Source: a virus (taxonomy: Duplodnaviria > Caudoviricetes). From it: DNA of 28,062 nt. The position numbers and the translations under genes are program-made. The DNA is taken from positions 1-28,062 of the IMG/VR virus record IMGVR_UViG_3300020699_000011, one strand, 5' to 3'. Position 1 is the stretch's first letter; the number at the start of each line of letters is the position of its first letter. The notes under the pieces were generated by a model. It saw nothing but the letters and a program-made list of their open reading frames with translations. It ran no database searches and was not told the origin of the DNA. Shown in pieces: positions 1,532 through 23,002 of this stretch.

Positions 1532-3598
1532 TTATGCTATTTGTATTGCGGTCCAACCAGTAGTATTTGTTGTAGAGATTCCAGTTGAAACACTTGACTT
1601 AAAGACAATGTCTCCAGTTGAAGTAGCTCCAGCCGCTACGTACACAGGACCCATTGTAGTCAATGTTGCCAAGAATGTAGTAGAAACATTTGTAACTCCA
1701 CTAGAACCACTAAACTTAAATTGAGCAGCATATCCTCCGGTAAGAGAACTTCCTCCACCGACTTGAGCTTGTATTGTTCCAGTTGCACCAGTAGTTGTTG
1801 CAGTTACTGTAGCATTTACAGTTACAAGCCACGTACCAGCAGCTAGTGTTCCAGTATTAAATACTGCTCCAGTTGAATCTGCTAAGATAGTCACATCAGT
1901 AGAAATGTTTCCTGAAGCGTAAGCAACAAACGGAGCTACAGCATCGGCAGAAGTATCCAACCAAAGAATGTTAGTGTCTGAAGGCGGAGTTCCATACGAC
2001 TCGTAAATACCTGGGTCACCAATGTTTCCTTGTGAACCTTGAGTACCAGTTTGACCTTGAGGTCCCTGATATCCTTGTGGTCCAGTATCACCTTGGAATC
2101 CTTGAGTACCTGTATCTCCTTGGTATCCTTGGTAACCTTGAGAACCAGTTGCTCCTTGGAATCCTTGAACTCCTTGATTACCAGTTAAGCCTTGTTCTCC
2201 TTGGAATCCTTGATTTCCTTGAACTCCTTGAGTCCCTTGGAATCCTTGAGACCCTTGGAATCCTTGATTACCTTGAGAACCAGTATCTCCTTGAGAACCC
2301 TGGTATCCTTGGTTTCCTTGGTCGCCCTGATATCCTTGGTTTCCTTGGTACCCTTGAGCACCTTGAGAACCAGTGTTTCCTTGAGTACCTTGGAATCCTT
2401 GGTTTCCTTGGTCGCCCTGATATCCTTGGTTTCCTTGATAACCTTGCGTACCTTGCGGTCCAGTATCGCCTTGGAATCCCTGAACTCCTTGGTCACCCTG
2501 GAACCCTTGATTACCTTGATAACCTTGTGTACCTTGTGGACCAACTGCTCCGTCAAGGTTAACTACCCATGATGAACCAGAAGGTGAACCAACAATGTCA
2601 GTAGTATTAGCAATGTTAAAAACAAGTTTACCACTTGCATTATCATATGAAACTACACTTGCAGTTGCGTAATTAGCATCGTCTTGCGCAACAAGAATAG
2701 TTTGAGGAGTTGAATAAGCAAGTCCAGCAGCAACATACAGTATGTTACTTCCAACTGCAAGAGTTACAGTTGTAGTACTTGTTGTTGAGAACTTGTCTCC
2801 TGTGACACCTTGGTAACCTTGGTAACCTTGAGGTCCCATGTCTCCTTGGAAACCTTGTGAACCAGTATCTCCTTGAAAACCTTGCGGGCCTTGGTCTCCT
2901 TGGAAACCTTGAGTTCCGTCATTACCTTGCGAACCTTGACTTCCGTCTGCACCTTGATTACCTTGGTATCCCTGGTATCCACGTACACCTTGGTAGCCTT
3001 GTGGTCCCTGGTCTCCAGTAAATCCTTGATATCCCTGAAGACCTTGGTCTCCTTGGAAACCTTGTTCGCCTTGTACGCCCTGTGTGCCCTGGTTTCCTTG
3101 AGCTCCGTCACTGCCTTGCGAACCTTGATATCCTTGATACCCTCGTGTTCCTTGAGCTCCGTCATTTCCTTGAGTTCCTTGAAGTCCCTGGTCTCCTTGA
3201 TACCCTTGGTTTCCTTGATTACCTTGAAATCCTTGGAACCCTTGAGAACCAGTATCACCTTGGTATCCTTGTGGACCGTCATTACCTTGAAAACCTTGAG
3301 TTCCTTGGTCGCCTTGCGGTCCTTGATATCCCTGGTTACCTTGCGCACCGGTTGTTCCTTGAGAACCTTGATAACCTTGCGCACCTTGTGACCCTTGAGA
3401 ACCTTGATTACCTTGGACACCAGTAGAACCTTGAGGGCCTTGATTCCCTTGAGTACCTTGAAACCCTTGAGTACCCTGAGAGCCAGTGTCACCTTGAGAG
3501 CCTTGATTACCTTGAGTACCTTGCGACCCTTGCGAGCCCTGAGCTCCAACAACGGCCGTAACCCAGGCTGACCCGTCCCAATACTTTAACTGTGCCAT
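1532..3598 (-). CDS. Collagen-like fibre protein 2 (688 aa) with an internal beta domain and a C-terminal BclA/C1q-like domain
   Basis: Two long G-X-Q tracts separated by GDKFSTTSTT...SWVVNLDGAVG; C-terminal beta sandwich with GTLAAGTWLVTVNATV; AAGGA upstream of the ATG. Confidence 0.92.
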   Translation of the reverse strand: MAQLKYWDGSAWVTAVVGAQGSQGSQGTQGNQGSQGDTGSQGTQGFQGTQGNQGPQGSTGVQGNQGSQGSQGAQGYQGSQGTTGAQGNQGYQGPQGDQGTQGFQGNDGPQGYQGDTGSQGFQGFQGNQGNQGYQGDQGLQGTQGNDGAQGTRGYQGYQGSQGSDGAQGNQGTQGVQGEQGFQGDQGLQGYQGFTGDQGPQGYQGVRGYQGYQGNQGADGSQGSQGNDGTQGFQGDQGPQGFQGDTGSQGFQGDMGPQGYQGYQGVTGDKFSTTSTTTVTLAVGSNILYVAAGLAYSTPQTILVAQDDANYATASVVSYDNASGKLVFNIANTTDIVGSPSGSSWVVNLDGAVGPQGTQGYQGNQGFQGDQGVQGFQGDTGPQGTQGYQGNQGYQGDQGNQGFQGTQGNTGSQGAQGYQGNQGYQGDQGNQGYQGSQGDTGSQGNQGFQGSQGFQGTQGVQGNQGFQGEQGLTGNQGVQGFQGATGSQGYQGYQGDTGTQGFQGDTGPQGYQGPQGQTGTQGSQGNIGDPGIYESYGTPPSDTNILWLDTSADAVAPFVAYASGNISTDVTILADSTGAVFNTGTLAAGTWLVTVNATVTATTTGATGTIQAQVGGGSSLTGGYAAQFKFSGSSGVTNVSTTFLATLTTMGPVYVAAGATSTGDIVFKSSVSTGISTTNTTGWTAIQIA
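2305..2437. repeat. 43-nt exact direct repeat (2305-2347 and 2395-2437) within the collagen-coding tract
   Basis: atccttggtttccttggtcgccctgatatccttggtttccttg occurs twice, 90 nt apart. The general ccttg 9-nt periodicity reflects CAA-GGN codons. Confidence 0.85.
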
Positions 3599-3694: not shown

Positions 3695-4651
3695 TTAATT
3701 AGTTGGCGTCCAAACTCCACTAATAAGTCTAAGTACGCATCCTTCAAAAACAGGCATTCCACTTACTGGATATCCAAGTATCATTGATGACGTGTCAATC
3801 CCAGAAGCTCCTTGGTTTCCTTGTGAACCTTGGTAACCAATATTTCCTTGAAAACCCTGCGTTCCTTGAGGCCCTTGATATCCTTGAGAACCTTGAGAAC
3901 CAGAAGAACCTTGATTACCAATATTTCCTTGCGTTCCTTGGACTCCTTGTGCACCTTGATACCCTTGATTTCCCTGGCTTCCCTGGTATCCTCTAGCTCC
4001 TTGCGCTCCTTGCGCGCCTTGATATCCTTGAGGACCTTGTGGAGCAACGGCCGGAGTAGTTTCGTCAAGCCAAAGAATGTTTTCATCAACTGGAGGAGTT
4101 CCAGTGTCAGTTGCTAAAATGCCAGGGTCTCCGGTAACTCCCTGTGGACCTTGCGGGCCAGCTGGTTCTGATTCCCATGATACCGCAGTACCTGATGAGT
4201 AAAGAATTGTACCTTGTGGGCCAATTGGAAGATTTGTAAGAGCATTTTCACCAGTACCAATAAGAAGGTCGCCAGCATTTTGTACTTTTCCAATTGTATT
4301 TACTACAGCAGTGTTTGCTTCTTTTAAGTCGACTGATGTAAGAATATGAACAACAGGAGCATTTGAATTATGTGAAACTGAATTAGTTCCATCATAGCCA
4401 CGTGTTATTCCTGTAAGAGTAACTGGACCTGAGCCCCATGAATAAGAACCGGCAGGTACGTAAATCTTTTCTTCATTTGCGTTTCCAAAGTCAAGTGCAA
4501 GAGCAAATCCTCCACCAGAACCAAGTCCGTTCCAACCTGATGTTGTATTGACAACAACAATTGTCGTAGCAGAAGAAGAAATTGAAGCATCAAGTTGTGA
4601 TGTAGGAGCTCCACCAACATAAGTATTTGTTGTATATGGTGTGCGAGCCAT
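3695..4651 (-). CDS. Fibre/virion structural protein 3 (318 aa): N-terminal beta domain and short collagen tract
   Basis: N-terminal domain with EEKIYV...ITRGYDGTNSVSH, fibre motif AGDLLIGTG...LPIGPQGTIL...W, G-X-Q tract, and a C-terminal GYPVSG...WTP unit resembling the repeats of the 694-aa fibre. Confidence 0.85.
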   Translation of the reverse strand: MARTPYTTNTYVGGAPTSQLDASISSSATTIVVVNTTSGWNGLGSGGGFALALDFGNANEEKIYVPAGSYSWGSGPVTLTGITRGYDGTNSVSHNSNAPVVHILTSVDLKEANTAVVNTIGKVQNAGDLLIGTGENALTNLPIGPQGTILYSSGTAVSWESEPAGPQGPQGVTGDPGILATDTGTPPVDENILWLDETTPAVAPQGPQGYQGAQGAQGARGYQGSQGNQGYQGAQGVQGTQGNIGNQGSSGSQGSQGYQGPQGTQGFQGNIGYQGSQGNQGASGIDTSSMILGYPVSGMPVFEGCVLRLISGVWTPTN

Positions 4652-7134: not shown

Positions 7135-9219
7135 TTAGACGATTCCTACAACACTAAGTGTAGAGAAGTTTATTTGACCAGTTCCTGTGTTCCAGTTGCA
7201 TCTCATTGTCATTGTTGAATTTGTTACTACTGGTGAAAGTGGCACATAAACAAGCGACCCTGAATAAGTATTTCTAGTGGTTGTTAATGCTTGACCAATC
7301 GCAAAGTTTGCAACAAGGGCGTTACTTGGCCCTTCAATAATGTTTACAGAAAGAGTTGCGGAAGCAGATTGAGCATTTGCTTGACCCATAGAAAAAGTAA
7401 TTAAAAACTTTGAATAAACGTATGTATCTGTATTAAAAACAACACTGTTAATTGCTACTGGGGAAGTTCCCACCGGAAGGGCTGTTGATTGAGGATTTGC
7501 ACTCCACGCATCATTGTTTGGCGTAGAACCTGCAATGGCGACGATTGTGTATTTTTTTAGAGAATCATTCCATTGAACCGCACCGTTTCCACCACCGTTA
7601 GGCGAAGGTGTAAAAGTGTATTTACCGCCATCCCAATAAAGAATTGAACCATTACCAATAGAGCCAAATCCAGGAGTTGAACTCATGTTTGTAAAAAGCC
7701 ATTGCTGAGAAAGGTTATCCCAATACATAAGGCTTCCGTTAGACGGACTTGTGGTTCCGCTAACAGCCATACCTTGAATCTTGGCAACCGTTGGATTTGG
7801 GTAAGTTCCTGAAAGGTCACCACCAGCTGCACCTGATGGTGATGCCGCAGCTGGAGCCCAAGCCGTACCGTTCCATGTAAGAACGTATCCGGTAGTTGCA
7901 CCAGTAGTTGTTCCCAAAGGCGAGCCGTTAATCTTGGCAACCGTTGGATTTGGGTATGTTCCAGTTAAGTTTCCACCAGCAGAACTTCCAGAAAGAATTG
8001 GAGTTACAGCCGTGTATGAACTTCCGTTCCATTGAAGTATTTGTCCATTTGATAGAGAAACACTAGAAGTCCAGAAACCTCCATTCCAATACATAACTGA
8101 GCCGTTGCCAGTTGGAGCTCCTGTAGAGATAATTGCATTAGTGCCTGCATATGTGGAATAATAAAGAAAGTTTCCATTTGATATAGTAGTAAGGTTTAAT
8201 GTATTGCCTTGCAATTTTGCAATTGTTGGGTTAGGGTATGTACCAGTTAAGTCACCGGCAGCAGTAGTTCCTGAAACTACAGGTGTTACTGCAATATATG
8301 AACTACCGTTCCATTGAAGTATTTGTCCGGTTCCAGGCGTTGCCGTTTGCACCCACCCAGCAGTGTTCCAATAAAGCATCTGCCCTGCAGCAGTCGGCGC
8401 CGCAAAAGGAGACCAAGAAAAACTTGTAGTACTATAACCAAGAAGACTTCCATTTGAAGGCGCGTTACTTCCTGTAACATTTAATGTGTATCCTTGAAGT
8501 TTATTAACTGTCAAGTTTGAATAAAGACTACTTGCAAGGTCGCCGGTTGCAGTTGATGAAGTTGTAAGAACTGTTTGCGCTGTGTAAGAACTGCCATTCC
8601 AAACTAGTACTTGTCCGGTTCCAGGTGTTGCTGTTTGAATCCAACTGGCACTATTCCAATAAAGCATTTGTCCAGCGGCAGTTGGTGCTGCAAAAGGAGA
8701 CCATGTAAAACTTGTAGTGCTGTACCCAAGAAGACTTCCATTTGATGGAGCAGAATACCCAGTAACATTTAATGGGTATCCTTGAAGTGCATTTACAGTA
8801 GTTACTCCTGTGTTAGTTGTTGTGACATCAAATAAAAGAGATTGCGGAGTCCATGTTGAAGTTGAGTTGTTATAAATAAGAATTTGAGCATCAGTAGGCG
8901 CCGTTGCTGAGACTGCTTTACCTTGAATTTGTGTTGCGTTTCCAGTTCCTCCAGAAGAAGGAGACCATGCAGTTCCATCCCATGCAAGAACATAACCTAC
9001 AGTTGCTCCTGTAGTAGTTCCGAGTGGAGAACCGTTAATTTTTACAACGTGAGCAGAAACTGCGCCACTGCCAGTTGCAGTAACATCTCCAGTAAGTGCT
9101 GTAATGCCTGAACTTCCTCCTCCTCCAACAGAAGAAACCGGCGTCCACACTGCATCTGAACCTTTACCGGTTGACGTTAAGTAAAGTCCTTTTGTATTTG
9201 TTTGTGGAATGTTACTCAT
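7135..9219 (-). CDS. Tail fibre protein (694 aa) with beta-rich shaft repeats and a C-terminal tip domain
   Basis: Repeated (A)GDL(T/S)GTYPNPT(V/I)AK(I/L)xG and GQ(V/I)LxWNG..W/Y units; beta-sandwich-like C-terminus. Confidence 0.85.
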   Translation of the reverse strand: MSNIPQTNTKGLYLTSTGKGSDAVWTPVSSVGGGGSSGITALTGDVTATGSGAVSAHVVKINGSPLGTTTGATVGYVLAWDGTAWSPSSGGTGNATQIQGKAVSATAPTDAQILIYNNSTSTWTPQSLLFDVTTTNTGVTTVNALQGYPLNVTGYSAPSNGSLLGYSTTSFTWSPFAAPTAAGQMLYWNSASWIQTATPGTGQVLVWNGSSYTAQTVLTTSSTATGDLASSLYSNLTVNKLQGYTLNVTGSNAPSNGSLLGYSTTSFSWSPFAAPTAAGQMLYWNTAGWVQTATPGTGQILQWNGSSYIAVTPVVSGTTAAGDLTGTYPNPTIAKLQGNTLNLTTISNGNFLYYSTYAGTNAIISTGAPTGNGSVMYWNGGFWTSSVSLSNGQILQWNGSSYTAVTPILSGSSAGGNLTGTYPNPTVAKINGSPLGTTTGATTGYVLTWNGTAWAPAAASPSGAAGGDLSGTYPNPTVAKIQGMAVSGTTSPSNGSLMYWDNLSQQWLFTNMSSTPGFGSIGNGSILYWDGGKYTFTPSPNGGGNGAVQWNDSLKKYTIVAIAGSTPNNDAWSANPQSTALPVGTSPVAINSVVFNTDTYVYSKFLITFSMGQANAQSASATLSVNIIEGPSNALVANFAIGQALTTTRNTYSGSLVYVPLSPVVTNSTMTMRCNWNTGTGQINFSTLSVVGIV
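8290..8787 (-). repeat. Tandem 288-nt (96-aa period) internal duplication in the tail fibre
   Basis: LQGYPLNVTG...GQVLVWNGSSY starting at 8787 and LQGYTLNVTG...GQILQWNGSSY starting at 8499; differences mostly at third codon positions. Confidence 0.9.
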
Positions 9220-9228
9220 AACTTACCT

Positions 9229-9738
9229 TTATTGCGCACTCACTAATACTACTGACATATACGTAAGAAAAGTTCCAGTTGTGGCAAGTGAATCTTGAAT
9301 TCCATAAATGTAAAGACCATTTGATGCAATTGCAGAAAGCGTGACCGGAGTACTGTTAGCAGAAAGATGCACAATGTCAGAAACTACACTTGTGTATCCA
9401 TTTACTGTTGCAATTGTTTGAACTGTTGTTCCTTTAGCTTTTATTGTTCCACCAAGTGTAATAACTGCTTGTCCGTATGTGCCTGCCGATGGACTTACAT
9501 ACGGAGCAGTTCCAGTTGCGCCAAAAGTTATTGCGCCAGACACTTGATAATAACCAGAAGTTGGCACGACAATTCCTGATGCAGATGCGGTTGCTCCATT
9601 TGCAACTTCAGTTGTTACATTCCAAGGAACCACCGTCGTTCCAGAAATAGTTGTTGCATAAACGTAAGAAACACGAGCAAGTGGTTGCCCTGCTTTTGGT
9701 TTTATTGTACTAGAAAGATAGTAGAGTTCTGCTTCCAT
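9229..9738 (-). CDS. C1q/TNF-like domain protein C (169 aa)
   Basis: VPW...NG...SGIVVPTSGYYQVSG...SDIVHL...TYMSVVLVS; paralogous to the two upstream genes. Confidence 0.75.
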   Translation of the reverse strand: MEAELYYLSSTIKPKAGQPLARVSYVYATTISGTTVVPWNVTTEVANGATASASGIVVPTSGYYQVSGAITFGATGTAPYVSPSAGTYGQAVITLGGTIKAKGTTVQTIATVNGYTSVVSDIVHLSANSTPVTLSAIASNGLYIYGIQDSLATTGTFLTYMSVVLVSAQ

Positions 9739-9744
9739 AATCTC

Positions 9745-11976
9745 CTAAGGACTCACATACACAATTGATAAATAAGTCAAATTAGGGAGCCCAGTGGTTC
9801 CGTTTCCCCAAGCATAAACTTGACCACTATTTGTTGTTGCGTAAGCAGTAATTACAGCCGTCACTGATTCATTTTGCGTAAGGTACACAAGGTCAGAAAC
9901 AAGAACTCCGTATTCCAATGCTGTAGTTTGCTGGTTAATTTGGTTACTTCTTGCAATCAAAGTATCATTAGCATAAATATCCATATAAGCATAAGAACCT
10001 GAAGTTAAGTTTCCGTAAGAAATTGAACTTGTAGAACTTAATTCTGCTCTTCCAATAACTTTGTACCAACCAGTTTTAGGCACTGTAAATCCGTCACCAC
10101 TTGCAATCATTCCATTTACACAAAAAACTGCTGGTTGGCTCCAAGTTATTTCTGTTTGTGTGACTCCTGTATACGCAGTATCATATGTTGTAACTGTGCC
10201 AGTACTAAATGTGTTTCCAAACACATAAGGAAGTGAAGTCCCAGCAAGTTGATTTTCGTAAGTAAAAGTAGCAGGACTTGGCACAGAAAGAACTGTTACT
10301 GGAGAGTTGTTAAATCCAGAAAGAGAACTAATGTTTCCGCCTGCAATAGTTGCATTTGCAGAGTTTAAGTAAGAAAAATTATAGCCATCAATGTATGAAA
10401 TTCCAGTTTGCAACCCATTAAATCCAGATAGTCCAGTAACATTAAATCCTACAACTGGTGTTTGGCTTGTATCGATTGAAGAATCATACGTGAAGTTTAA
10501 AGAATCATTTACTGTAATGTTTGCTCCAGTTACTGTGAATCCTGATACTCCAGAAACATTTCCTCCAGATGCGGAACTTGCAATAGTGCTAGCATACGTA
10601 AGTGAAAGACTTGTTGGCACAGTTGTAATTGCGTATGTGCCACTAAATCCAGTTCCGTAAGACCATGTCCCACCGTAAGCAATTTGCGTTTGAGTTGAAG
10701 GAATAGAAAATGAAGTTGATGAAATAGGAGTTATTGTGTATGTTCCGCCGTAAGGAGAAGCTTGAGTTCCAACGTATCCAATAGACATAGTGGAATGATT
10801 AGTAGTTCTAAAATAACAAGTTGTGGAAAAACTAAATGTTGGATATGTTTTACTTCCAATTACTACTGTGCCTGTACTTGTGACAATTTGATTTCCATTA
10901 AATCCAGAGTTTCCACTCCAAGTTGCCGATGTTAAAAAAGCATCAAAAGAACTGAATGCAGTACGAACTTGAACAATTGTTGAAGACGGACATGAATCAA
11001 CAGTCCATGTTCCGTTGTATTTAGAATTTGTACCGGTGAGACCATTAACAGTAAAACTACTGCCTGGAACTAAACCATGGTCATGTTGTGTGTAGTACCA
11101 TACAGTAAAACCTGTAACAGGACTTCCAACAATTTCTGAAAGATTACCTGATGTTGAGACACCAGAAATGTTAACTGTATTTCCAGTTGATGCGCCATAC
11201 GGAAGAGTTGCTGCATCTACAACAACAGTTGCAGTAGTAGTTCCTGTGTTTCCAGAAGTAGTAATTCCTGGCACAGTTCCTTGATAAATAATGCTGTATC
11301 CAGCGGACCCTCCTGCAATTGTCACTGTGACTGCTGTTGTTGGTGCGTTTGAAGTAACAACTAAAGCATTGCCAGATGACGGAGTGTTTGGAGTAATTGA
11401 AGAAATTGAACCTGAGCCAGAAGGAACATACACGGTAACATTTTCTCCAACAGTTAATGTGTGCGGTGAAGAAGTATTGACTGTGACTGCGCTTCCGTCT
11501 CCACTAATGTCAACAATACCAGAAGAAATAGCAGGAAGATTATAAGAAATGCTTGCGGTGTTACCAGTTACAAATCCATGATTTGTAGTTGTGGTGACAG
11601 TGGCTGTTGAGCCATCTCCAACAATTGAAGCACCTGAAAGATTAACTGTATTATTTGCAATTGTAACTGCTGCATTGTCTTGTAGAACATGAGGCGTAGT
11701 TGTAGTGACAATTGCTGTTGTACCATCTCCAATAATAGTTGCAATTGAAGAGTTTGTTAAGTTATTTGCAATAGTGACAACTTCTCCGGGAACAAGTCCG
11801 TGAGAAGACTGAGTTGTAAGAGTTACAGTTGAAGCATTTTCAAGCGCAGAAATTGAAAACACGCCGATATTAGTTGCACTATTTGTGATGAGTTGAGAAC
11901 CATAAAGAGCAATACGGCCTGCAGGTATTCTAAGATTTTCTTGATTAAATAAAAGATAAGAAAGTTCAGCGTCCAT
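9745..11976 (-). CDS. C1q/TNF-like protein B (743 aa) carrying a ~570-aa insertion of nested beta domains
   Basis: The N-terminal 35 aa and C-terminal ~135 aa align by eye with both flanking paralogs (FTVPKTGWYKVIG, SDLVYL, TYLSIVYVS); the middle holds TT..HGL..G..VTI and GFNG..T...FTY motifs. Confidence 0.8.
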   Translation of the reverse strand: MDAELSYLLFNQENLRIPAGRIALYGSQLITNSATNIGVFSISALENASTVTLTTQSSHGLVPGEVVTIANNLTNSSIATIIGDGTTAIVTTTTPHVLQDNAAVTIANNTVNLSGASIVGDGSTATVTTTTNHGFVTGNTASISYNLPAISSGIVDISGDGSAVTVNTSSPHTLTVGENVTVYVPSGSGSISSITPNTPSSGNALVVTSNAPTTAVTVTIAGGSAGYSIIYQGTVPGITTSGNTGTTTATVVVDAATLPYGASTGNTVNISGVSTSGNLSEIVGSPVTGFTVWYYTQHDHGLVPGSSFTVNGLTGTNSKYNGTWTVDSCPSSTIVQVRTAFSSFDAFLTSATWSGNSGFNGNQIVTSTGTVVIGSKTYPTFSFSTTCYFRTTNHSTMSIGYVGTQASPYGGTYTITPISSTSFSIPSTQTQIAYGGTWSYGTGFSGTYAITTVPTSLSLTYASTIASSASGGNVSGVSGFTVTGANITVNDSLNFTYDSSIDTSQTPVVGFNVTGLSGFNGLQTGISYIDGYNFSYLNSANATIAGGNISSLSGFNNSPVTVLSVPSPATFTYENQLAGTSLPYVFGNTFSTGTVTTYDTAYTGVTQTEITWSQPAVFCVNGMIASGDGFTVPKTGWYKVIGRAELSSTSSISYGNLTSGSYAYMDIYANDTLIARSNQINQQTTALEYGVLVSDLVYLTQNESVTAVITAYATTNSGQVYAWGNGTTGLPNLTYLSIVYVSP

Positions 11977-11985
11977 AAATATTTT

Positions 11986-12480
11986 CTACGAGCAAACGTA
12001 CGTTAAAGATAAGTAAGAAGAAGCCGTGTCTGAAACTCCAGCAGTCCATAAATAAATAGAACCGCCAGATGAAGCAGTAACTAAAGCTTTAACAACTCCT
12101 CCTTGTGGGACGTACACTAAATCTGCTGCTGCACTTGTGTATAAAGAATTAGATGCTGATTGAGCAATTGCCGTTCCTTGACTATAGTTTATTCCATTCA
12201 CAATTAAGTCTATTCTACCAAACGAACCTGAAGCAGGCCCAGAATAAGTAGAGCTAGAACTCGAACTAAATGTTGCTAATGCTTGCACAAGATAGTAACC
12301 TTGAAAAGGCACGGTAATCCCAGATGTTGCAGCAATCATTCCGTTTGTTGCAAAATCCGTGGCATTCCAAGTAGGAGAAAGAGTAGTTGAAATTAGTTGA
12401 GCACTTGTTGTATGCACTCGAGCTACTGGCTGGTTAACAGGTACGTTTTTTGTAAGTAGATAAAGAGTTCTTACATCCAT
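11986..12480 (-). CDS. C1q/TNF-like domain protein A (164 aa)
   Basis: PTW...NGMIA..SGITVPFQGYYLVQA...ADLVYV...SYLSLTYV; TAATG overlap with the upstream gene. Confidence 0.75.
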   Translation of the reverse strand: MDVRTLYLLTKNVPVNQPVARVHTTSAQLISTTLSPTWNATDFATNGMIAATSGITVPFQGYYLVQALATFSSSSSSTYSGPASGSFGRIDLIVNGINYSQGTAIAQSASNSLYTSAAADLVYVPQGGVVKALVTASSGGSIYLWTAGVSDTASSYLSLTYVCS

Positions 12481-14750
12481 TATGAAAGTTCCATTGTTGA
12501 AGTAAGTATCATCATTGGCTGGTTGTTTAATCCAGCAATACCGTCATAAAAATGAGAAGTTAAAGATGATGTTGTGTTTTTTCCAGTTGGGTCATATGTT
12601 ACATCAGCAATGTATTGAATTGCTCCGCATGGATTTGTATACTTTACTGTAGACCATCTTGCAATGTTATCTTCAACAAATCCCATAAAGTTTGGGAATG
12701 GCGAATTTGTAGCAGAAAAAAGAACTAATGAAAGCATTTGGTTATTTGTGTTAGAAGACCAGCCATTAACTGTTTGCACAACATACGGTGGGAACGTGTA
12801 CGTTAAAGAAGGAGATTCATCTGAATCTGGAACATAAACACGAGTATCTTGAAGAGCAATGTTAACTCCAAAATTAGTTCTTGTACCGCCAGATTCAGTT
12901 AATACTAAGAATTTTCCAGTTACATTTGAAGGAAGAGGAATGTCAATCCATGTTGAAGGATAAATAAATGATGCAAATCCATAACTTGAAAGAAGTGATA
13001 GCGTTCCATCATCATTAAGAAAAACTACAGCATTTGTTAATGCATCGTAAGCAGAAACTCCACCGTAAAAAGTGGCAAGTGACATTATGTTATCACTTGT
13101 GCATGCACCATCTTTACTAAGACCAATGACTGAAGTATTTGTAATTATGTTATTGCCTTGCACTCCAAGAATTAGTTGATATTCGTCAACAAATCCTTCT
13201 ACATCTGCATCGCTAAACAACGGGTTGTAGTACTGCGCTATAACATTTTGCCAAGACCCAACTTGAAAAACGCTATTACCATCAATCCATGTTGCCATGC
13301 AATAAAGAGTAAGAAATCCCATGTCAGTTGTGTCTCTTACATACACAAGATTTCCAACACTAAAACTACAAAGACTTGAACGTTGAAATGGTCTTCCTTG
13401 GCCCGTGTCGCATGGAAGTTGTGGTGTTGGACTTAAAGAAGAAAGAACACCGGACGAATCTAGTATTGCATAGTATCCGTTATATATTTCTTGCCCATTA
13501 GAAACACCGCCAAAAATAAACAAATAATCAATTGAGTCAATAGTTACTACACTTAGAGAAGGAGTGACATCTGTTGAAAGAAGGTTAAATGCAGGAAAAG
13601 AAAATCCTTGAATTGTCCCGCTATTATTGTATGTAAGTTGAAGTGATTGCCATGTTCCCATAGTACCGTCTTGAGGAAAAGAAGCAGAATAAAGAGTTCC
13701 AGATGGTCCTATTGCATATAAAACAGAACAAGAAGGAGCAAATGTAATAGCAACTTTGTATTCTGGAAGAGGAGCGCCTTTTGACCAAAGCCCGACTTCT
13801 CCAGTAAGATACTCTGCAAAATAAACATCATTTGTTGTAACTACTCCAGTATTTGAAGTAGATGCTGCATTTATTGCAGCAGTTGAATTTGAAGATGTGA
13901 TGTTAGTAACTACAACATAAGTGGATGCATTTACAAATTGCGCGTCAGTTGAAGTTGTTAAAGAAATAAAAGAACCAACCGGATAGACTCCAGTGTTTCC
14001 AAATACAAATTGACATCCTAAAAGATAATTGTTTACTGCATCAACACTTGTGTATGAAATAGTAGTTGAATTAGAACCATCAAATAAGATTGCATTTCCA
14101 CCGAGTGTAGAAAAGTTAGCAATGTCAACAACGCTAATAATTCCATCATTAGAAGTAAATGAAGTTATTGTTGAAGAAGTAATAGTAACGCTATGAAAAG
14201 TTGTAGTTGTAAGTGACGCAGAAGGAATCATCGAACTATTCATTGAATAAAACGGCCCTGGAAGATACTCATTTCCATCAGTCCAGTTTGAAGATGGAAG
14301 TGCATTAAGTATTTCTTTTGGAATTGTCAAAGAATAAGAACTTACACCGTCAGGATAATAATGACCACCAGATGAAGTAGAACCTTGAAGAGATACGGTG
14401 ACATCACAAGATGAAGAATAGTTATTCATAGTTGCATTGCTATTTGTAGCAAGTTGTAAATATGAAATTGGAATTCTAAGACGAGAACCACTAAATACGT
14501 TGATTCCATCAAGAGATTGCGCAATAGAAAAGTTTGTTATTCCATCTATTTGAGCCCATCCTGAAAAAGAAGTATTTGCAAATGGCCCACCAAATCCCAT
14601 TGTTACTCCAGATGTTGAAGTAGTGAATCTTGGTATTGTGCCGTCAGAATAAGAAGAAACTAATGTGTGAACAGAAAGTTCTTGATTTATGTCTGTAGAA
14701 CTTATACCGTTAGTTTGCGGTACTGAATGCCAAGTATTTAATGTAGGCAT
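12480..14750 (-). CDS. Tail-tip/baseplate protein (756 aa) with a degenerate Kelch-like region
   Basis: GLWSKGAPLP, VLYAIG, GTW, YLFIFGG, NLVYV, GSW blade-like motifs; N-terminus paralogous to the upstream gene; TAATG coupling at both ends. Confidence 0.65.
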   Translation of the reverse strand: MPTLNTWHSVPQTNGISSTDINQELSVHTLVSSYSDGTIPRFTTSTSGVTMGFGGPFANTSFSGWAQIDGITNFSIAQSLDGINVFSGSRLRIPISYLQLATNSNATMNNYSSSCDVTVSLQGSTSSGGHYYPDGVSSYSLTIPKEILNALPSSNWTDGNEYLPGPFYSMNSSMIPSASLTTTTFHSVTITSSTITSFTSNDGIISVVDIANFSTLGGNAILFDGSNSTTISYTSVDAVNNYLLGCQFVFGNTGVYPVGSFISLTTSTDAQFVNASTYVVVTNITSSNSTAAINAASTSNTGVVTTNDVYFAEYLTGEVGLWSKGAPLPEYKVAITFAPSCSVLYAIGPSGTLYSASFPQDGTMGTWQSLQLTYNNSGTIQGFSFPAFNLLSTDVTPSLSVVTIDSIDYLFIFGGVSNGQEIYNGYYAILDSSGVLSSLSPTPQLPCDTGQGRPFQRSSLCSFSVGNLVYVRDTTDMGFLTLYCMATWIDGNSVFQVGSWQNVIAQYYNPLFSDADVEGFVDEYQLILGVQGNNIITNTSVIGLSKDGACTSDNIMSLATFYGGVSAYDALTNAVVFLNDDGTLSLLSSYGFASFIYPSTWIDIPLPSNVTGKFLVLTESGGTRTNFGVNIALQDTRVYVPDSDESPSLTYTFPPYVVQTVNGWSSNTNNQMLSLVLFSATNSPFPNFMGFVEDNIARWSTVKYTNPCGAIQYIADVTYDPTGKNTTSSLTSHFYDGIAGLNNQPMMILTSTMELS

Positions 14751-22027: not shown

Positions 22028-23002
22028 CTAGTATGCTGTTGAAACGAGATTAGTAACTGTTGCGCCAATACTAGCAGTAGCAGTTGCCAAGTCGTATGAT
22101 GCTTCAAAGTCAAGAGTAGACATAACAACGTTATCCATTTTGATGTCATCTGCATACTTTGAAAGGTTAATTTGTGGCAATGTAATAGTCATTGCTTGGC
22201 CGCTTGGGTGAGTAAATGAAACATTAAGTGAACCTTGAGTTCCATTCATTAACTTAGTGTAGTAACCCCAGTCAGTGTCATCCAAACTATCAAATACAAC
22301 TTGAATTTGACCAGTAACTTTACGAGTTAAAGGAGTTAAAAATTGCAAATCGTGTGAACCATTAAATGTATATGTAGGTTTTAGACCGTTTTCAATATCA
22401 ATGCTTACACTTGTAACTTGAATCAAATTAGTGTTTCCAAAAACAGAAAGTTCTGCTTCAGCAAATACAAAAGGAGATTCATTAACTACAGAAATTGGGC
22501 TACTTGGCGTGTCAAGTACTGTTGCACTTTTAGAAACAAGAGATGCTGTGAATTCAACAGCATTGTCTCCAGCAGAAGCTTTAACGTTGTATTTTCCAAC
22601 TTTAGAACCAGCAAATTGCAATGACTGGTACCCACCAATGTTCTTTTCAACAGTCATTGAATTCAAAGAATTTGCAGCAGCAATAGTGTGAAGATACTTT
22701 CCACCACCTGCACTTGTAACAGTGTCACTACCAATTGCAGCAACAAATAGCTCTAAACCATTTGTTGGAAAGAAAGGAGCGCTAACGTCTCCAGCATGCT
22801 TGTATTCTCCATACAATGCAAAAACATTTACATCTCGAATACCCATAACAACTTGAGGGAAGAATAGACCTGGGTCAGACTCAAGTGTTACATCTGTGAA
22901 TGGGACAAATGATGTAGGAGTTACCGGAGTACCGAATGTGGTCTCTTTAGCAATTCCTACGGCGGATAGGGAACCGTACTTTTCTACAATCGGTGTGGTC
23001 AA
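22028..23002 (-). CDS. Major tail tube protein (324 aa)
   Basis: VGIAKETTFGTP, SMTVEK, SIDIENGL, RKVTGQI motifs of siphoviral tube proteins; TTG start after GAGG-TTT. Confidence 0.88.
   Translation of the reverse strand: MTTPIVEKYGSLSAVGIAKETTFGTPVTPTSFVPFTDVTLESDPGLFFPQVVMGIRDVNVFALYGEYKHAGDVSAPFFPTNGLELFVAAIGSDTVTSAGGGKYLHTIAAANSLNSMTVEKNIGGYQSLQFAGSKVGKYNVKASAGDNAVEFTASLVSKSATVLDTPSSPISVVNESPFVFAEAELSVFGNTNLIQVTSVSIDIENGLKPTYTFNGSHDLQFLTPLTRKVTGQIQVVFDSLDDTDWGYYTKLMNGTQGSLNVSFTHPSGQAMTITLPQINLSKYADDIKMDNVVMSTLDFEASYDLATATASIGATVTNLVSTAY

Follow-up and report, generated by a model that had tools for sequence, protein, structure and literature searches.

The virus DNA studied here (28,062 nt in full, hereafter the window) encodes on its minus strand a 743-residue protein, P0001 (9745–11976), that contains one whole unit of an FCCH/endosialidase-type β-barrel, preceded by six N-halves of such units and followed by six C-halves. 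It is highly likely that these pieces form seven nested barrels, with the outermost barrel placed in a loop of a C1q-like domain and the chain running out and back as an unbranched arm; the outer pairing in this arrangement is based on relatives and geometry. The block that interrupts the C1q-like domain (10160–11875) corresponds to approximately residues 34–606.

The assembly is a single contig of 28 kb, and the window is the minus-strand structural module of a tailed phage, with a capsid-type gene (phrog_13692), a tail tube gene (PF18906), a chaperone, a tape measure gene (PF10145), several tail genes, an NlpC/P60 gene and collagen-repeat fibres. A search of genome contigs found no prophage or host. 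A short paralogue lies on either side of P0001 (164 and 169 residues), and the order of the three genes is retained in both of the other lineages whose loci are complete, L002 and L003. L005 and L006, which are closer tail relatives, carry one short gene at the P0001 position and no arm. Seven full-length homologues of P0001 (44–99% identity, 739–755 aa) share a common layout in the alignment. A tblastn search of P0001 against GenBank phages returned only one weak match of 50 residues, and the best Atlas feature score of P0001 (0.76) serves as a lead only.

The segments of the gene and its two neighbours are as follows, in the direction of translation and with the evidence in parentheses. The C-halves are numbered from the outside, and C1, the last in the chain, is the predicted partner of N1.

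11986..12480, minus strand: C1q-like paralogue of 164 aa, uninterrupted, upstream of P0001 (C1q-like profile; Atlas features 0.96; TM 0.75)
9745..11976, minus strand: P0001 gene, 743 aa, C1q-like domain split by seven barrel units
11878..11976, minus strand: residues 1–33, N-terminal helix common to the paralogues and first C1q-like strand (profile positions 1–36, E 1e-3)
11758..11868, minus strand: N-half 1, residues 37–73, predicted partner C1 (profile 36.5 bits; mirror test)
11650..11757, minus strand: N-half 2, residues 74–109 (profile 18.0 bits; mirror test; DNA likeness to N3)
11542..11649, minus strand: N-half 3, residues 110–145 (profile 34.8 bits; mirror test)
11428..11541, minus strand: N-half 4, residues 146–183 (profile 28.6 bits; mirror test)
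11314..11427, minus strand: N-half 5, residues 184–221, degenerate, without the HG..G box (alignment; no profile match in P0001, 8.6 bits in P0006)
11161..11277, minus strand: N-half 6, residues 234–272, divergent (alignment; profile 7.9 bits)
10909..11160, minus strand: central contiguous barrel, residues 273–356, predicted arm tip (AF2 model; superposition)
10756..10908, minus strand: C-half with predicted partner N6, residues 357–407 (profile 11.1 bits; mirror test)
10654..10755, minus strand: C-half with predicted partner N5, residues 408–441 (profile 21.5 bits; mirror test)
10546..10653, minus strand: C-half with predicted partner N4, residues 442–477 (profile 28.7 bits; mirror test)
10429..10545, minus strand: C-half with predicted partner N3, residues 478–516 (motif and alignment; profile only 3.0 bits; mirror test)
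10321..10428, minus strand: C-half with predicted partner N2, residues 517–552 (motif SGF.G...YID..F, invariant in the alignment; no profile match in P0001; mirror test)
10183..10320, minus strand: C-half with predicted partner N1, residues 553–598 (profile 14.0 bits; mirror test)
9748..10170, minus strand: rest of the C1q-like domain, residues 603–743 (profile positions 29–163, E 2e-27)
9229..9738, minus strand: C1q-like paralogue of 169 aa, uninterrupted, downstream of P0001 (C1q-like profile)

Profiles for the N-half and the C-half were built from contiguous units in other proteins, with the P0001 family left out. The N-half profile gives five matches of at least 12 bits on P0001 (N1 to N4 and the centre) and the C-half profile gives five of at least 11 bits. 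All N matches come before all C matches, with no interleaving. Sixty shuffled controls yielded 0.02 N matches per shuffle at 12 bits and 0.35 C matches at 10 bits. Four of the 14 halves fall below the scores reached by the others in P0001 (N5 and C2 with no match, N6 at 7.9 bits and C3 at 3.0 bits); too divergent for the profiles, they were assigned by the GFxG...F[TS]Y motif, the alignment and the mirror test described below. The motif series of the initial annotation is thus real: every quoted motif was found in the claimed order and is aligned across the seven homologues, and the profiles agree when set against the shuffles. The halves of P0001 are copies of one domain, with the N-parts in forward and the C-parts in reversed order around a continuous core.

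The C1q-like domain that hosts the block is split. A profile of seven uninterrupted paralogues matches residues 1–41 of P0001 (profile positions 1–36, E 1e-3), a stretch that includes the first few residues of N1, and then residues 603–742 (profile positions 29–163, E 2e-27). Because the two profile segments nearly abut, the seven-barrel block is an insertion after the first C1q-like strand. The same domain is whole in both flanking paralogues, which bears out the proposal that the block interrupts it. The predicted model of the 164-aa paralogue resembles a C1q cluster (TM 0.75 over residues 12–164), and its Atlas feature score to C1q-bearing clusters is 0.96. The paralogue is therefore assigned the C1q/TNF jelly-roll fold on its model, and the assignment is carried to P0001 by the profile match. 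The Pfam C1q and TNF families were not matched at cut-off by the paralogue (TNF, 14.2 bits versus 23) or by P0001, and sequence matches in the PDB were limited to CD40L/RANKL at E 0.19–1. Phage C1q/TNF-like tail proteins (PF00386-bearing clusters) resemble the paralogue in fold and, by homology, residues 1–33 and 603–743 of P0001. P0001 differs from them in the 570-residue insertion after the first strand and in the three paralogues that stand here in a row.

An AF2 model of full-length P0001 (8 sequences) has a mean pLDDT of 39 and is confident only at approximately residues 271–360, where the pLDDT ranges from 64 to 87. In this model the central unit is a six-stranded, closed antiparallel barrel. 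Residues 272–360 superpose on the Uba1 FCCH domain (6dc6; Z 9.8, rmsd 2.6, 80 aligned residues), and the central unit superposes on the phi92 endosialidase barrel (Z 9.5, rmsd 2.2, 80 aligned residues) and on tail-tube barrels; the Z scores against PDB entries 6dc6, 4hiz, 9l0f and 9jlf are 9.8, 9.5, 7.3 and 8.0. The suggested likeness to the E1 FCCH domain thus holds for the modelled fold of the central unit, but the Pfam cut-off is not reached: PF16190 scores 15.1 bits (E 0.025), where 29.5 would be required, and covers residues 47–70 only. P0001 has no Pfam match at cut-off, a Foldseek search with the full-length model gave no match at E 0.001 or better, and a relative, P0089, passes the PF16190 cut-off with 35.8 bits. 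No ubiquitin-related role is implied by this likeness. On siphovirus tail tubes, FCCH barrels are found as decorations of the outer surface, and the FCCH (PF16190) and endosialidase decoration barrels are single contiguous domains in the part of that report available to us (PMC13576161), whereas six of the seven copies in P0001 are split. The accessible portion of a further report mentions an FCCH-like match in a tail tip and makes no mention of nesting (PMC13612043).

If each N-half pairs with the C-half of the same rank from the outside, similar N-halves are expected to have similar partners. This mirror test was applied to six of the eight aligned rows (two near-copies were left out), with boundaries set by eye. 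The similarity matrices of the N-halves and the C-halves correlate with r 0.83 in nested order, a value reached by 3 of 720 pairings, and with r −0.19 in parallel order. Adding the centre gives an r of 0.65, a value reached by 40 of 5040 pairings. Levels 2–4 are the most similar on both the N and the C sides, and N2 and N3 share 73% DNA identity over 91 nt. Nest depth is identical in all seven full-length homologues. No member of the C1q-like family with another depth was found in 64 hub-gene loci and three more, which held known long forms and single short genes only, or among the 14 matches of a 1.84-billion search. A search for other depths among shorter proteins gave one match, which belongs to another family, and a scan with P0010 gave none.

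Changes in depth were observed in another tail protein. P0017, a weak match of the 1.84-billion search, led to 95 longer proteins, of which the top 41 are Dit-type. These 41 proteins (27–92% identity across the final 420 aa, with a median of 39%) all close with a run of halves, which falls into three N/C classes, 7/2 (332–353 aa), 8/3 (411–430 aa) and 9/4 (497–500 aa); one exceptional 7/2 protein has a run of 421 aa owing to an unrelated insert. By automated counting, N exceeds C by 5 in 32 of the 39 proteins with an anchor motif, and two of these 32 reach this value through compensating weak matches. The seven exceptions come to 5 by eye (halves had been missed or counted twice), and the two proteins that lack the motif are 7/2 and 8/3. 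The 7/2 form has one whole central unit fewer than the 8/3 form (P0039, residues 562–640). In a tree built on the Dit core from 38 of the 41 rows, the starred branches force at least five changes of each label, 7/2 and 8/3; some of these changes may come from recombination. N and C parts are therefore gained or lost together in the Dit-type relatives, as the initial annotation had predicted for homologues of P0001. The co-variation concerns a host protein other than the C1q-like one, because the P0001 family, with the same depth in every homologue, shows one depth only.

The five spare N-halves of the Dit-type proteins are explained by the next gene, which ends with five C-halves followed by a [YF]RSGW strand in all six loci (L018:6012–10867, L019:5778–10859, L099:12001–17960, L100:11995–17961, L101:2734–7875 and L102:12001–18179). 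The five C-halves were found automatically in five loci, and in L019 as four plus one by eye. In these loci the Dit-type gene stops inside a C-half and the next gene starts with other domains (Fn3 in L018); the [YF]RSGW strand is the one that terminates unsplit Dit proteins. Thus, a Dit with a nested arm is probably completed in trans by two proteins. Four of the six loci belong to the cultured Microbacterium phages Zooman, Pumpernickel, Cece and A3Wally, in which the nest proteins carry no annotation beyond 'minor tail protein'. The large tail gene that follows has a 6N/6C run in its interior (counted automatically in P0089 and P0097, partly by eye in the others). The Dit-type and following minor tail proteins of the Microbacterium phages resemble P0001 in their runs of N-halves and then C-halves of the same barrel, 6–8 deep. 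They differ in that the host is a Dit (PF22768) or the next large tail protein, and in that the Dit nest extends over two genes.

The pairing of halves can be followed in a model of one of these relatives. An AF2 model of P0039 (8N/3C, 38 sequences) has a pLDDT of 83–97 over residues 491–707, which include N6–N8 and C8–C6, and the third strands of N6, N7 and N8 are paired. N1–N5, which lack partners in the chain, are modelled as hairpins (pLDDT 66–80) with the third strand unpaired. The barrel of 9e7m, 78 residues in size, can be aligned for 72 residues with the discontinuous range 523–690 of P0039 (Z 6.8, rmsd 2.9), which in the model forms a barrel of N7 and C7 around the inner unit. Three reductase barrels likewise span the model from residue 525 to residues 685–689.

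Two other readings of the order in P0001 were considered. The barrels might be completed between chains, with the N-halves of one subunit joined to the C-halves of another as a domain-swapped arm. The five Dit N-halves with likely partners in a separate gene make trans pairing plausible, and C1q/TNF-like domains usually trimerise. In P0001, however, the N and C counts are equal within one chain, the central unit is contiguous, and the short C7–C6 and N6–N7 links hold the partners adjacent in a single chain; the P0039 model also closes its nest confidently as a single chain. Inter-chain pairing is accordingly considered improbable. It is still more improbable that there is no nest, with neighbouring N-halves folding together and C-halves likewise, or with two separate β-rich fibre segments. 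Such an arrangement is compatible with the low-confidence full-length model of P0001, and barrels of this general class can form from two similar halves. The five consecutive N-halves of P0039 that lack partners are nevertheless modelled as hairpins with an unpaired third strand, the co-variation of counts and the mirror similarity would be unexpected, and the split C1q-like domain requires that the chain return to its start. The pairing of N1–C1 to N6–C6 is most likely that of a nest, given the relatives and the geometry. Recursive insertion into the same loop, with N1 joined to the last C-half, was proposed in the initial annotation and agrees with the split host domain, the order of the halves, the mirror test, the Dit counts and the P0039 model.

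Related nests take several other forms. In a third family, an NNCC insert of 154–161 aa occupies a site where one relative has nothing, and the P0009 family includes members with 0 and 2 units and with unrelated inserts, with no clear case of a single unit. In L021–L052 (for example L021:5640–9128), L053, L081–L091 and L095, one site in the C-terminal domain is an insertion hotspot that holds nothing, a two-level NNCC nest or unrelated inserts of 65–116 aa, depending on the relative. P0079, P0071 and P0064 are Dit proteins with an apparently tandem NCNCNC order, a period of ~60–63 aa and extra short strands after the last unit; they may represent another way of nesting, with just the final strand of every barrel coming back at the end. 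Branched nests occur in P0050, P0057, P0059, P0061, P0025, P0028, P0032 and P0067, where whole barrels also lie within the first hairpin of an N-half.

Additional features were observed among the structural genes. Long collagen-like Gly-X-Y fibre genes with frequent GxQ triplets are located at 44–487, 1532–3598 and 3695–4651 of the window, and a 694-aa fibre-like protein with internal duplications is encoded at 7135–9219. A Pfam LigD_N match of the latter (E 4.5e-7, below the cut-off) is probably spurious. The 756-aa gene of the window (12480–14750) has homologues at L005:11850–14276 and L006:11818–14187, which by eye seem to have, near the C-terminus, one whole FCCH-like unit that is absent from the window copy; the profile scan did not list these homologues. 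The tail tube of the window (22028–23002) has 324 aa, and those of the relatives L114:5186–6406, L119:4276–5724 and L160:3866–5524 have ~406, 478 and 552 aa; the longer tubes contain one, two or three copies of another small β domain at one site, apparently in tandem. These 0–3 extra units were rejected as copies of the same barrel, being of another barrel type and apparently tandem.

In the proposed nest of P0001, each barrel would be opened at the loop after its third strand, that is, in mid-barrel, and the next copy inserted there. The chain would run out through six N-halves, form the central barrel at the tip and run back through six C-halves. The levels would close in reverse order on the return path because the links are short, and both ends of the arm would be held at the base because the C1q-like domain is split. 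Growth would proceed by insertion of whole units at the tip, as in the Dit family. We estimate the length of the two-stranded arm very roughly at 15–20 nm. The N-terminal helix and the C1q-like domain would anchor the arm at the tail tip, where P0001 may, at about even chances, form a trimer with the two flanking paralogues.

For the role of the arm we lean slightly towards a putative spacer or adhesion arm that would bring the tip barrel from the baseplate towards the glycans of the host surface. Less probable, yet with an appreciable share of our expectation, is that the nest is real and the arm serves as a structural strut or decoration, with the C1q-like head binding the receptor; this reading bears on function alone and leaves the nested build as proposed. 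It is favoured by L005 and L006, which manage without the arm, by the tail-tube decoration noted above for FCCH barrels (PMC13576161, as far as its available text goes), and by conservation, which is higher at the base (C1, 0.67) than at the tip (N7, 0.37; C7, 0.52). The variable tip, on the other hand, suits a host-facing role. The fold of the tip also matches the endosialidase barrel, which binds sialic acid, but a shared fold shows no function, and a literature search on the sugar-binding site of the endosialidase barrel found no paper.

The initial annotation knew of no description of six-fold recursive nesting, and the novelty so claimed is wrong in general. A six-level recursive nest of hybrid motifs is highlighted for the Si3 insertion of cyanobacterial RNA polymerase RpoC2 in the accessible part of an ECOD survey (PMC13114784), and the crystal structure of Si3, likewise from the text available to us, shows motifs built from distant sequence in an arm 150 Å long (PMC10895346). 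Si3 (β', RpoC2) and P0001 share one small β domain recursively inserted, several copies of which are assembled from distant parts, in an elongated arm. As described in those portions, Si3 uses a sandwich-barrel hybrid motif in a trigger-loop host and is branched, with four of its eight motifs continuous; the nest of P0001, a protein of the phage tail region, by contrast appears strictly linear, with a depth of seven barrels of which a single one is continuous. P0001 was rejected as an Si3/SBHM proper, since its unit matches FCCH-type barrels and its gene lies in a phage tail module; the likeness is in build only. Contractile tail sheaths have been described as 'Russian dolls' of different domains (PMC6088184, in the part available to us); they too are phage tail proteins with domains inserted one in another, but the inserted domains are two to four different ones and not copies of one in the same loop. 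Our literature search, which covered mainly articles outside subscription journals, turned up no account of FCCH-type barrels nested in one another in phage tails. Specific to this case are the very probably nested, seven-deep linear arrangement in a C1q-like host and its three-paralogue cassette; the relatives add evidence of coupled gain and loss and of a nest divided between two genes in Microbacterium phages available in culture.

Counting the insertion into the C1q-like host, the depth of P0001 is seven insertions, which exceeds the six-level case highlighted in the available part of the ECOD survey. The usual picture of repeat proteins is that of beads on a string, and split units such as those of P0001 escape domain annotation. 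We tentatively suggest, at somewhat less than an even chance, that phage tails make general use of the FCCH-type barrel as a self-nesting block, from which arms grow by insertion of whole units at the tip, here seven-deep on just one subunit of a C1q-like heterotrimer and, in Microbacterium phages, as arms zipped from two gene products over five levels. A self-nesting domain would give an arm with two strands at every joint that is lengthened one unit at a time at its tip, a different rule for the evolution of tail adhesion arms and a possible design scaffold. The same build, including the two-gene form, is present in Microbacterium phages that can be grown.
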